Shown piece by piece: positions 12,001 to 15,000 of a stretch of 64,000 nt of DNA (position 1 is its first letter; every line of letters begins with the position of its first letter). A program made the position numbers. The stretch lies in assembly GCF_003991155.1 (NCBI RefSeq), contig NZ_CP031293.1; one strand, 5' to 3'. The stretch comes from Escherichia coli (GTDB lineage: Bacteria > Pseudomonadota > Gammaproteobacteria > Enterobacterales > Enterobacteriaceae).

Positions 12001-15000
12001 GTCGTCTGGGCGTCAGAACTTACCTGAAAGGTAAGAGTGCGTCTGATGATAATAAGGCGCATCAGTTCGAGCCATTTGTGGAAGTTAACTGGATCCATAA
12101 TACACGGAGCTGGGGTGTCAAAATGGATAATACGGCACTCAGTCAGGACGGAGCTACAAATATTGCTGAAGTCAAAACGGGTGTTCAGGGTAAATTGTCA
12201 GATAACCTGAATGTCTGGGGCAATGTTGGTGTTCAGGCTGGCGATAAAGGGTACAGTGATGCCCAGGCAATGCTGGGTATTAAATATATATTCTAATCAC
12301 ACAGTGGCAGGAGGGGACCTCCTGCCACCTCAGGGTTGTCATAATGAGTTCTGTAATGAAATTTTCTGTTGTTAATGCAGTAGTGCTGCTGTTGCTGATT
12401 GTACTTACTGGTGTTTTTTATATGAAAAAGTCAAAAGAAATTGCAGTTGTTAATATCGATGCTATTTATAATCAGTCTGCCGCCGGAGACATGGCCAGAA
12501 AACATCTGAATGAGGTTAAGAGTATTCTTGAAAAAGGATATGAGGATGCGCAAAAAGTATTCGCAGATAACGCGAATAAAGAGGCGCTGCTTCTTGATGC
12601 CAGACAAAAACTGGAACGACAATATGTTATTGAGGAAAATAGCGCAAAAATGGTGTTATCCCGTGCGATAGATAATGCTATAGGCACATGGAGAAAAGAC
12701 AATCCTAAAAATATTGCCGTATTGTCTTCAGGTGTTGTGCTTGCGCATAACGAGTCAGCTGATATCACCAAAGAAGTCATGACTCTGGTTGAAAAAGAAA
12801 ATCTGGTTTTTAATAAATTACCCAAAGTGGAAGTGCACAATAAGAATGAAGAGAAACCAGAACAAAGTAAGTAATCACTAGATTCTGACGATTTCCAGAA
12901 GGGAGATTCAGCAGGCCAGCATCTGTAATCATTCAGATTTGCTGGCTTGCTGCTAAATATGGTTGCTGAGAAAAATAGCAGGCCAGTAATTTATTCAGAT
13001 TACTGAATATAATAATTTTTCAGGAACGGTTATGCTGAAGGTAGTATGTTTAATCGACACAATTATTTGCTGTGTCTAATATGAGGTGACATTTTTATGA
13101 TCACTGACCAGCAAGACTGACCCGTATTGATTAGCCTGATTATTGGCAACTTATTGGGGTAGTCATTTTGACATCGAATGGGGGAGGTTTCCAGTTAAGT
13201 TCACGAATGCATGATGATTTGCGTTCACATATCGAAGTACTGGTTGACTATACTAAGGATTTTAAGATAACTCACTGATTGTAAGTGGGTTATTGCGAGG
13301 GGGATGATAAATGGTGTCCCCTGCAGGAATCGAACCTGCAATTAGCCCTTAGGAGGGGCTCGTTATATCCATTTAACTAAGAGGACAATGCCGCATGAGT
13401 ATACCCGCTAATGGACTGCGGGGTAAGTACACTGCCGCGCGATTGCTTAAACCCTCGCCATTTATGCCGGGTTTTTATCATTTTTCTTAATGTTTTCCGC
13501 ACGTTCTGCTTTTTGGCGTGCTTCTGCTTTGCGCTTGTTGCTCATGTCGTTACGAATCTGTGCATGACTCATTAACGCGAAGATAAAGGTGCCGCCGCAG
13601 ATGTTCCCCGCTAAAGTAGGTAGTGCGAAGGGCCAGATGAAATCGCTCCAGTGCAGCGTACCGTTAAACACCAGATAGAGGATTTCAACAGAACCGACAA
13701 CGATGTGAGTGGTGTCACCCAGGGCAATAAGCCAGGTCATCAATATAATCACCACAATCTTTGCCGCACCCGCTGAAGGAAACATCCATACCATAGTGGC
13801 GATCAGCCAGCCGGAAATGATCGCGTTGGCAAACATCTCGCTGGGGGTGTTCTTCATCACATCCATGCCGATTTTGACAAATGCATCGCGAGTTTCTTCA
13901 TTAAAGATAGGCATATATTCAAATGCCCACGCCGCAATACCTGTCCCGAGAATATTACCCAGCAGCACGACGCCCCATAACCGCATAAGTAAGCCAACGT
14001 TGCTCATTGTCGGTTTTTGCATGACGGGTAGTACCGCAGTCACGGTGTTTTCGGTAAATAATTGCTGGCGGGCCATAATGACGATAATAAAACCAAAGGT
14101 ATAACCGAGATTCTCCAGCAAGAAGCTGCCCGGCACACCTTCCAGTTCGACATGAAATATCCCTTTTGCCAGTAATGAAGCGCCCATCGACAGACCCGCC
14201 GCAATGGCTGACCACAGTAGTGCCATTGCGTCGCGTTCCAGCTCTTTTTCACCATCCTGGCGGATATGCTCATGAATTGCCATCGCCCGGGAGGGGAGTC
14301 GATCTTCATCTATTTCTATTTTTTTGCCGCGCTCTTTTTCTTCGCTCTCAACTTCAATTTCGTCGCTGTGTTGATCAATTTTGTCGTTGTCCATGGTCTC
14401 TTCTCTTGAATTAGCACGTATAGCTAAAGCGTAGCGGCTTTTTTGCTCGCAACTGGCGGGAGTTACTCTGAAAATGTAGAAAAGGCCGCGTTTGCCTTTT
14501 TCTGTTTCTATAGAATCAAGTAGCCTACAGGGCGGCGATTACCAGGCTATGATCAAATCAGCAAATCAGGGCGTCTGGACATCAGTTGACGTGCTGTTAC
14601 AATCGCCCACACCTAAACAGGCGGATACGGTATCGTTCCGTCATGGATGGCAAACTGCATAAGCCATAAAAAAACAGGGAGACATTTATGAAGCTTCGCC
14701 TGTCGGCGCTTGCTCTGGGAACTACGCTTCTGGTGGGGTGTGCGAGTTCCGGTACAGATCAGCAAGGGCGTTCTGACCCGTTAGAAGGGTTCAACCGCAC
14801 CATGTACAACTTCAACTTCAATGTATTAGACCCGTATATTGTTCGACCGGTCGCTGTCGCCTGGCGTGATTATGTTCCGCAACCGGCGCGTAACGGTTTG
14901 AGCAACTTTACTGGCAACCTTGAAGAACCTGCGGTGATGGTTAACTACTTCTTGCAGGGCGACCCTTATCAGGGGATGGTCCACTTTACCCGCTTTTTCC

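Follow-up and report, generated by a model that had tools for sequence, protein, structure and literature searches.

A divergent OmpH/Skp-family gene lies behind large autotransporters, next to a junction hairpin, and may encode an accessory periplasmic holdase

We analysed 64,000 nucleotides of the Escherichia coli contig NZ_CP031293.1 (the window), in which the gene of the giant autotransporter UpaE is followed on the same strand by a 176-amino-acid open reading frame (ORF), here called the Skp-like gene. We found that its product almost certainly has the fold of the OmpH/Skp family of periplasmic chaperones, and we are confident that the linkage of such genes to large autotransporters is conserved. 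A stable RNA hairpin occupies the junction between the two genes. Taken together, these findings moderately favour the reading that the gene encodes a co-encoded accessory OmpH/Skp holdase of a distinct subfamily, spaced by a hairpin behind giant autotransporters; for the helper function itself we consider the case evenly balanced. The features on which the argument rests are as follows.

4377–12296, plus strand: upaE, a phase-variable classical (type Va) autotransporter adhesin, 2639 amino acids (ORF list and RefSeq)
12304–12328, plus strand: intercistronic stem-loop with a perfect G+C-rich stem of 11 bp and a GGA loop, 8 nt after the upaE stop
12332–12335, plus strand: weak Shine–Dalgarno-like AGGG, 8 nt ahead of the ATG at 12344 (read from the sequence)
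12344–12874, plus strand: divergent OmpH/Skp-family gene, 176 amino acids, ATG at 12344 and TAA at 12872–12874
12362–12424, plus strand: uncharged hydrophobic N-terminal segment, residues 7–27 (FSVVNAVVLLLLIVLTGVFYM), followed by KKSK
12434–12796, plus strand: OmpH/Skp-like domain, residues 31–151
12809–12829, plus strand: conserved C-terminal motif F156-x-x-L159-P160-x-V162, beyond the match to Skp

The ORF at 12344–12874 is a real gene that is selectively maintained. Its ratio of nonsynonymous to synonymous substitution (dN/dS, Nei–Gojobori) was 0.13–0.37 against homologues from an E. coli plasmid, Salmonella and two metagenomes, and of the 252 complete E. coli genomes with the gene, 250 have it intact (at least 80% query coverage). 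An original prediction, made from the DNA alone, had placed a 176-amino-acid product directly 3′ of the giant autotransporter, and this is where the ORF lies, with 47 nt between the upaE stop and its ATG. The start given then, 12297, proved to be only the first base past the upaE stop codon (12294–12296), and the size given for the autotransporter, ~280 kDa, exceeds the computed molecular weight of UpaE, which is 270 kDa. In RefSeq the product is a ‘hypothetical protein’ (WP_000100042.1), with other alleles named ‘OmpH family outer membrane protein’ or ‘membrane protein’. The claim that no clear Shine–Dalgarno sequence precedes the gene was right in that there is no canonical site, but it missed the weak AGGG ahead of the ATG, at the position of which homologues have CGGG or AAGG. 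In the minimum-free-energy fold of the junction, a lower stem pairs UAAUC with GGUUG, and the AGGG is partly paired with the upaE stop-codon region. The AGGAGG in the 5′ arm of the hairpin was ruled out as a Shine–Dalgarno sequence, since it lies inside the stem, 29 nt away from the ATG.

The assignment to the OmpH/Skp fold comes mainly from the family. A profile search of 1.84 billion representative proteins returned 214 relatives at E ≤ 1e-3 (representative clusters), 52 of which make up the family alignment. Pfam OmpH was matched at E ≤ 1e-3 by 34 of these 52 proteins, and when the family profile was run against the Protein Data Bank (PDB) the top four matches were OmpH/Skp chains (E = 2.5e-4 to 4.8e-4). 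Alignment to E. coli Skp by hhalign gave 91% probability (E = 1e-6, 125 columns, ~19% identity). A structure model built from the 52 sequences replaced a first, 7-sequence model (pLDDT 74.8). The predicted structure has the small beta-sheet body and long alpha-helical hairpin of the fold: a strand at residues 32–36, helices at 38–44, 46–72 and 79–119 (the ‘tentacle’ hairpin), a strand at 123–128 and a helix at 142–150. Only holdase chaperones stood clear of the generic helical-protein background when folds were compared. The comparison with Skp by profile and structure that had been proposed as a check has thus been run, and profile, profile–profile and fold comparisons all uphold the original Skp/OmpH-like call. 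Its narrower wording, that the protein shares blocks with Skp, survives only in part, as pairwise BLASTP covers just the first beta-strand (EIAVVNIDAIYNQSA with KIAIVNMGSLFQQVA, E = 0.055); a phmmer search of the single protein against the PDB found neither Skp nor any other relevant match. The genome NZ_CP134663.1 contains both the housekeeping skp and the Skp-like gene, so the latter is an additional copy, and the description of it as a paralogue is borne out. In RefSeq the label ‘OmpH family outer membrane protein’ is already attached to many alleles, those of CFT073, Nissle 1917 and ATCC 25922 among them, and the family assignment is therefore not new.

The Skp-like protein departs from Skp (HlpA/OmpH; PDB 1sg2 and 1u2m; PF03938) in several ways. 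The helical arms of Skp are ~20 residues longer. The isoelectric point (pI) of the Skp-like domain is 6.2 and that of the putative mature form 6.9–7.0, compared with 9.5 for mature Skp, so the strongly basic character of Skp, which we looked for, is not found in the Skp-like protein. Beyond the hhalign match, which stops at residue 149, lies the FxxLPxV motif, which is absent from E. coli Skp; F156, L159 and P160 are kept in at least 90% of the 52 family members, and a low-complexity K/E-rich tail runs from the motif to residue 176. The housekeeping skp gene lies between bamA and lpxD, whereas the Skp-like gene lies behind an autotransporter on a genomic island. A second OmpH-like protein, the putative outer-membrane chaperone CC_1914 of Caulobacter (PDB 4kqt), is 12% identical, and we know of no autotransporter link for it.

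The N termini also differ. Skp has a short cleaved signal peptide; the Skp-like protein begins with a hydrophobic run of 21 uncharged residues in which no AXA site was seen, and which was modelled as a single helix spanning residues 3–26 or 9–28. This N terminus is a predicted export signal, which might remain uncut as a signal anchor or act as an atypical signal peptide with cleavage after LTG23. In the wider family the N termini comprise AXA signal peptides, lipoboxes (often with Asp at +2) and long hydrophobic stretches, and the autotransporter-linked proteins of Yersinia ruckeri, Klebsiella aerogenes and two metagenomic loci (L016 and L023) have Cys-Asp lipoboxes. In enterobacteria, Asp at +2 is a signal for retention in the inner membrane. 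From these N termini we infer that the OmpH-like domain is periplasmic and often membrane-tethered. In another metagenomic homologue (L021, positions 2763–2830), the hydrophobic segment (MKLSIFNWLFLALLILISGFF) and the remaining gene are in different frames, with the break at a T run, and because of this the protein is called from the equivalent of Met27; the break reflects either an error of assembly or a tract prone to slippage.

Neutral pI, shorter arms, the extra FxxLPxV motif and a possible membrane tether would also suit a protein that has an OmpH-like fold and is not a holdase, such as a membrane-tethered periplasmic adaptor that positions the autotransporter, keeps it from associating with itself too early or monitors the load on secretion. 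From SadB and TpgA it is clear that the partners of autotransporters need not be classical chaperones. We consider such an adaptor very unlikely, because nothing points to a specific alternative activity: the NCBIfam matches were all sub-threshold and to unrelated families (best E = 0.0049, far below curated cut-offs), the only further Pfam match, to DUF1993, was weak, and it is holdase chaperones alone that separate clearly from the background in the fold matches.

We then sampled 15 loci that encode relatives of the Skp-like protein. Nine were linked to an autotransporter, four were not, and two lay at contig ends, where the neighbourhood cannot be judged. At the nine linked loci, which come from Escherichia, Salmonella, Yersinia, Klebsiella and metagenomes, the relative lies directly 3′ of a large autotransporter on the same strand, with spacers of ~25–65 nt, and the proteins fall into seven clusters that are <50% identical to each other. 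The adjacency to a giant autotransporter that was first noted in the window is therefore conserved. The linked loci outside the window are listed below, with identities to the Skp-like protein where available.

E. coli IncY plasmid pAPEC201602 (L012, NZ_CP127299.1), 1795–11543: 76% identity
Salmonella diarizonae: 63% identity, in the same module of recombinase, regulator and autotransporter
Metagenome L021: 49% identity
Metagenome L005: 44% identity, with relaxase genes nearby
Yersinia ruckeri plasmid (L013): 33% identity, with a 1675-amino-acid PATR-repeat autotransporter whose barrel region is 25% identical to that of UpaE
Metagenome L016: ~25% identity, behind a 2244-amino-acid autotransporter
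Klebsiella aerogenes (L018): behind a 2014-amino-acid autotransporter
Metagenome L023: behind a BigA-type autotransporter

On pAPEC201602, regulators of the FaeA/PapI and PapB families lie upstream in place of the ipu invertase switch, and the UpaE-like autotransporter is split into ORFs at 3041–5794 and 5791–10953; a module of UpaE-like and Skp-like genes may thus have been placed under a different control system on the plasmid, which also carries phage genes (terminase and repressor C1). A second Y. ruckeri plasmid (L014) was not counted, being a degraded duplicate of the L013 module; its Skp-like gene is broken by a frameshift and its autotransporter barrel survives only in remnants, with a split S6-peptidase autotransporter ahead of them. 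Both Y. ruckeri copies have a gene for a ‘SapC family protein’ 3′ of the Skp-like gene (L013, 6985–7827; L014, 9569–10039), which, in that lineage, may belong to the module as a third gene. At another locus (L009), two divergent OmpH-like members of the subfamily lie ~1.5 kb apart (6–515 on the minus strand and 2054–2533 on the plus strand) with no autotransporter nearby.

Among 5426 complete E. coli genomes, the Skp-like gene was found in 252, at 258 places, and the region encoding the UpaE barrel was likewise found in 252 genomes at 258 places; it is these counts that were compared. A scan of one genome per species, based on the alignment of the enterobacterial subclade, gave no confirmed relative as far as two peptide patterns can detect. 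The link to autotransporters is, on the sequences sampled, recurrent and old, and it is not universal in the family.

Recurrent adjacency could also reflect the joint inheritance of a mobile two-gene cassette, with the Skp-like protein acting as a generic auxiliary envelope chaperone or stress protein, in effect a spare Skp that serves outer-membrane proteins at large and does not favour the adjacent autotransporter. The family of 214 clusters includes members in housekeeping or unrelated surroundings (flanked by dnaX and apt, next to msrAB, or close to a type III secretion cluster), UpaE is displayed in K-12 without the Skp-like gene, and the two genes have diverged in parallel (barrel identities of 100, 91, 88, 71 and 25% alongside Skp-like identities of 100, 76, 63, 44 and 33%), as co-inheritance would have it. 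We nevertheless regard a generic role as unlikely. Adjacency holds across the seven divergent clusters, beside UpaE/AIDA-like, PATR-repeat and BigA-like autotransporters alike, on different replicons and under either ipu invertases or PapI/PapB; the gene and upaE are found in equal numbers of genomes and places in E. coli; and these genomes already have a housekeeping skp.

The junction hairpin has arms at 12304–12314 (GTGGCAGGAGG) and 12318–12328 (CCTCCTGCCAC) that are 100% complementary, as expected from the perfect 11-bp stem-loop described originally. The loop is the 3-nt GGA and the hairpin ends at 12328; the 4-nt loop (ggac) and the end at 12329 given before arose from counting one C twice. 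From the end of the hairpin to the next ATG there are 15 nt. The 53 nt at 12294–12346 fold at −24.1 kcal/mol (z = −3.5), as well as which none of 200 shuffles folded. Perfect hairpins with arms of at least 11 nt and a gap of at most 12 nt occur only three times in the 64 kb, and the other two are at 62013–62047 (17-nt arms, 1-nt gap) and 17190–17218 (13-nt arms, 3-nt loop). We rejected a repetitive extragenic palindromic (REP) or other repeated element, as the hairpin occurs once in the window where 0 chance matches are expected, and a known RNA family, as Rfam returned only the tRNA described below and a chance match on the strand opposite to it. The heptamer TAATCAC, a stop codon followed by TCAC, ends both upaE (12294–12300) and the Skp-like gene (12872–12878), and past the autotransporter stop it is invariant at the E. 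coli, plasmid, Salmonella and L021 junctions.

All nine junctions between an autotransporter and a Skp-like gene have a stable stem-loop, 6–14 nt past the autotransporter stop codon. The E. coli plasmid keeps the stem and has the loop AUC, Salmonella has a single mismatch in the stem, L005 has a double change from C-G to U-A and a GAAA loop, and in L021 three stem pairs show compensatory double changes; the equivalent position is taken by unrelated hairpins at the Yersinia, Klebsiella, L016 and L023 junctions. Four sequences could be aligned in register, and 97.7% of their stem cells are paired; sliding the partners by 1–3 columns lowers this to 43–68%. In the same alignment, three pairs are formally counted as altered on both sides, all of them in one sequence; with n = 4, 13 of 500 shuffles matched the observed values. 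From this comparison of sequences, the structure of the hairpin looks to be selected and kept while its sequence varies.

A stable stem directly past a stop codon invites the view that the hairpin terminates the ipuR–upaE operon, in which case the Skp-like gene would be expressed from a promoter in the 3′ end of upaE or be barely transcribed, and would not share the phase variation of upaE. The stem is very stable (11 G+C-rich pairs, −24 kcal/mol), the equivalent hairpin in Y. ruckeri is followed by a full U-tract and so is a canonical terminator, and the published account is of a two-gene operon. Yet an intrinsic terminator is made of a stem and a U-tract, and only the stem is present here. 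The next bases are CTCAGGGTTGTC, in line with the original remark that no T-run follows, the tail reads CUCAGGGUUGUC, and a terminator scan made no call, so that we rejected a canonical terminator at this junction. Y. ruckeri is the only one of the nine junctions with a U-run, and the tract is missing from 7 of the 8 junctions other than that in the window; its usual absence argues against a simple full stop of transcription at the hairpin. The sole promoter-like site nearby (12024–12053) scores 9 of 12, and such sites are present in the region at the number expected by chance. The gap from hairpin to ATG is just 15 nt, and the gene behind it is under purifying selection. We therefore consider termination of the operon at the hairpin quite unlikely. 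A structure-conserved hairpin lacking a U-tract fits, at the level of structure, the earlier idea of an element for RNA stability or partial termination.

How an accessory holdase might work can be outlined as follows. The Skp-like gene would be transcribed with ipuR and upaE by read-through from the phase-variable ipuS promoter. In the RNA, the hairpin would act as a barrier to 3′ exonucleases that protects the 3′ end of the upaE mRNA, as a leaky terminator, or as both, and would thereby set the ratio of adhesin to helper. More speculatively, a ribosome terminating on upaE could expose the start site of the Skp-like gene, given that the lower stem pairs the stop region with the AGGG. The Skp-like protein would be exported and possibly kept tethered to the inner membrane, where it would hold the 270-kDa UpaE unfolded on leaving SecYEG, with the ESPR signal peptide delaying release, before UpaE is handed to SurA and BAM or TAM. 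UpaE does begin with an ESPR extended signal peptide (MNKIYKVIWN...), and its barrel is of the AIDA-I/MisL type (NCBIfam TIGR01414 autotransporter barrel, E = 2e-98). Holding at SecYEG fits this ESPR, and it also fits the findings that Skp is the first chaperone to contact EspP after Sec export and that the inner-membrane protein SadB aids the trimeric SadA (PMC8151025; PMC3953254). Whereas the gene, its fold, its status as an extra copy, the conserved gene order and the conserved hairpin are shown by the analysis, we infer that the gene is co-transcribed with upaE and that the protein forms trimers, and likewise its topology, its client and what the hairpin does. A broader proposal, that there is a class of membrane-tethered ‘mini-Skp’ holdases dedicated to giant UpaE/AIDA-type and BigA-type autotransporters, encoded in cis past a conserved hairpin that does not terminate transcription, and acting at the SecYEG exit together with the ESPR, is more doubtful, and we put it forward tentatively.

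Several observations weigh against an accessory holdase co-expressed with its autotransporter, in addition to the single source of the compensatory changes, the shuffle result and the Y. ruckeri terminator given above. On the side of the fold, the match of the single protein to Pfam OmpH (PF03938) is sub-threshold (E = 0.011, 16.3 bits) and its match to DUF1993 is comparably weak, and Foldseek, run on the PDB with the shallow first model, gave no significant match, Skp ranking second with E = 1.1. With a pI of 6.2–7.0, electrostatic binding of clients in the manner of Skp cannot be assumed. The KKSK right behind the hydrophobic segment is unusual for an export signal of N-in, C-out orientation. 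The four family members that have no autotransporter neighbour include one that is 42% identical (P0028). The most direct points come from published work. Battaglioli et al. (2018) described ipuR–upaE as a two-gene operon, with no mention of the Skp-like gene (PMC6083910), and published quantitative reverse-transcription PCR, including that of a later study, covered ipuR and upaE only. The reverse primer used for their upaE clone ends at the upaE stop codon (PMC6083910), so the clone has neither the hairpin nor the Skp-like gene. In K-12 MS427, UpaE from this clone was a surface-located protein of 271 kDa, and it was active in biofilm formation and in binding to extracellular matrix proteins (PMC6083910). 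Because UpaE is displayed without it, the Skp-like gene is dispensable, at least when the housekeeping chaperones are present. The ‘specialised secretion helper’ of the original prediction is thus not supported as a requirement, full-length, surface-exposed and adhesive UpaE being made without the gene; any helper role is accessory, in efficiency or quality control, and not obligatory.

Small exported proteins encoded beside an autotransporter and co-transcribed with it are known from SadB (with SadA, in Salmonella) and TpgA (with AtaA, in Acinetobacter), and the Skp-like gene likewise adjoins its autotransporter. SadB is a trimeric lipoprotein of the inner membrane that improves surface display (PMC3953254; PMC8151025), which recalls the frequent Cys-Asp lipoproteins among the autotransporter-linked relatives of the Skp-like protein. 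Its fold, a coiled coil with a MATH-like domain, is however unrelated to OmpH, and the partners of SadB and TpgA are trimeric type Vc autotransporters, whereas the neighbour of the Skp-like gene is of the classical type Va and the Skp-like protein is known from sequence. For type Va, VirK (for Pet) and OsmY (for Ag43, TibA and EhaA, the last spelled ‘EheA’ in the review) have been proposed as helpers of particular autotransporters (PMC8151025); unlike the Skp-like gene product, they do not have the OmpH fold and are not encoded beside their clients. A 2021 review of folding in type 5 secretion lists VirK, OsmY, SadB and TpgA as helpers and has no Skp-like gene beside a classical autotransporter (PMC8151025). 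We found no report of an autotransporter-linked Skp/OmpH gene in the open-access literature, an absence that is not proof. The fold and the family were known before and carry annotation; what appears unreported is the link to autotransporters, and the short-armed, neutral subfamily with its possible tether, its pairing with giant autotransporters and its conserved junction hairpin appear undescribed.

Stem-loops between cistrons set differential expression within operons after papA in pap, at the REP element between malE and malF, and in the puf operon of Rhodobacter. The junction hairpin resembles these in that it is stable, has no U-tract and separates a highly expressed structural gene from the accessory genes that follow it. 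It is itself neither REP nor repeated and matches no Rfam family.

Classical autotransporters are usually said to need only SurA, Skp and DegP together with BAM or TAM. If the class of dedicated holdases exists, it would be the first cis-encoded chaperone class for type Va secretion and a case in which a general chaperone fold has become specialised for one client; the few client-specific helpers known either are unlinked to the client (VirK and OsmY) or serve trimeric autotransporters (SadB and TpgA). Conservation of a gene with the Skp fold behind giant adhesins of type Va would indicate that polypeptides of >200 kDa cross the periplasm in a specialised way. UpaE is a phase-variable adhesin of uropathogenic E. 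coli, and both the model of the ipuR–upaE operon and the published upaE clone omit the Skp-like gene, so that its inclusion could alter the efficiency measured for UpaE display. The conserved hairpin, for its part, is a simple system in which the control of expression inside an operon can be tested.

The Skp-like gene is the final gene of the ipu–upaE island. In RefSeq the gene order, at 100% identity in E. coli chromosomes, is dsdC, ipuB, ipuA, an HTH regulator (ipuR), UpaE, the 176-amino-acid ‘hypothetical protein’, tRNA-Arg, yfdC and mlaA. The other features of the island in the window are as follows.

2785–3414: ipuA
3732–4352: ipuR
13312–13386, minus strand: tRNA-Arg(CCU), the boundary of the ipu–upaE island (ARAGORN, Rfam tRNA and RefSeq), which we take from the K-12 map to be argW

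Between the Skp-like gene and the tRNA lies a 437-nt non-coding stretch (12875–13311) in which AGCAGGCCAG occurs twice, at ~12908 and ~12978. Each copy opens a predicted stem-loop (z = −2.4 and −3.5), and the pair could mark the end of the operon, be remnants of an integration site, or both. The equivalent of this stretch in a GenBank record, MG710528.1 (‘Escherichia phage GER2’; L019), contains a marked ‘attL’. In that record, positions 2691–12775 hold the entire island from ipuA through ipuR and upaE to the Skp-like gene, adjoining a prophage; UpaE is given there as two coding sequences, both named ‘long tail fiber proximal subunit’, and the label on ipuA reads ‘integrasse’. The segment looks like chromosomal DNA from the flank, deposited and wrongly annotated as phage.

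Within upaE, a Pro-Gln repeat at ~11230–11300 (residues around PPEPQPQPQPQPQPQPHPHPTP) forms the linker that joins the passenger to the barrel. Matches to 10800–12296 in other E. coli genomes span 1485–1527 nt, compared with 1497 nt in the query, which suggests a length difference somewhere in this interval, possibly at the Pro-Gln repeat. Beyond the island, the interval between mlaA and fadL contains a 415-amino-acid ORF on the minus strand (15622–16869), which RefSeq annotates as a ‘hypothetical protein’.

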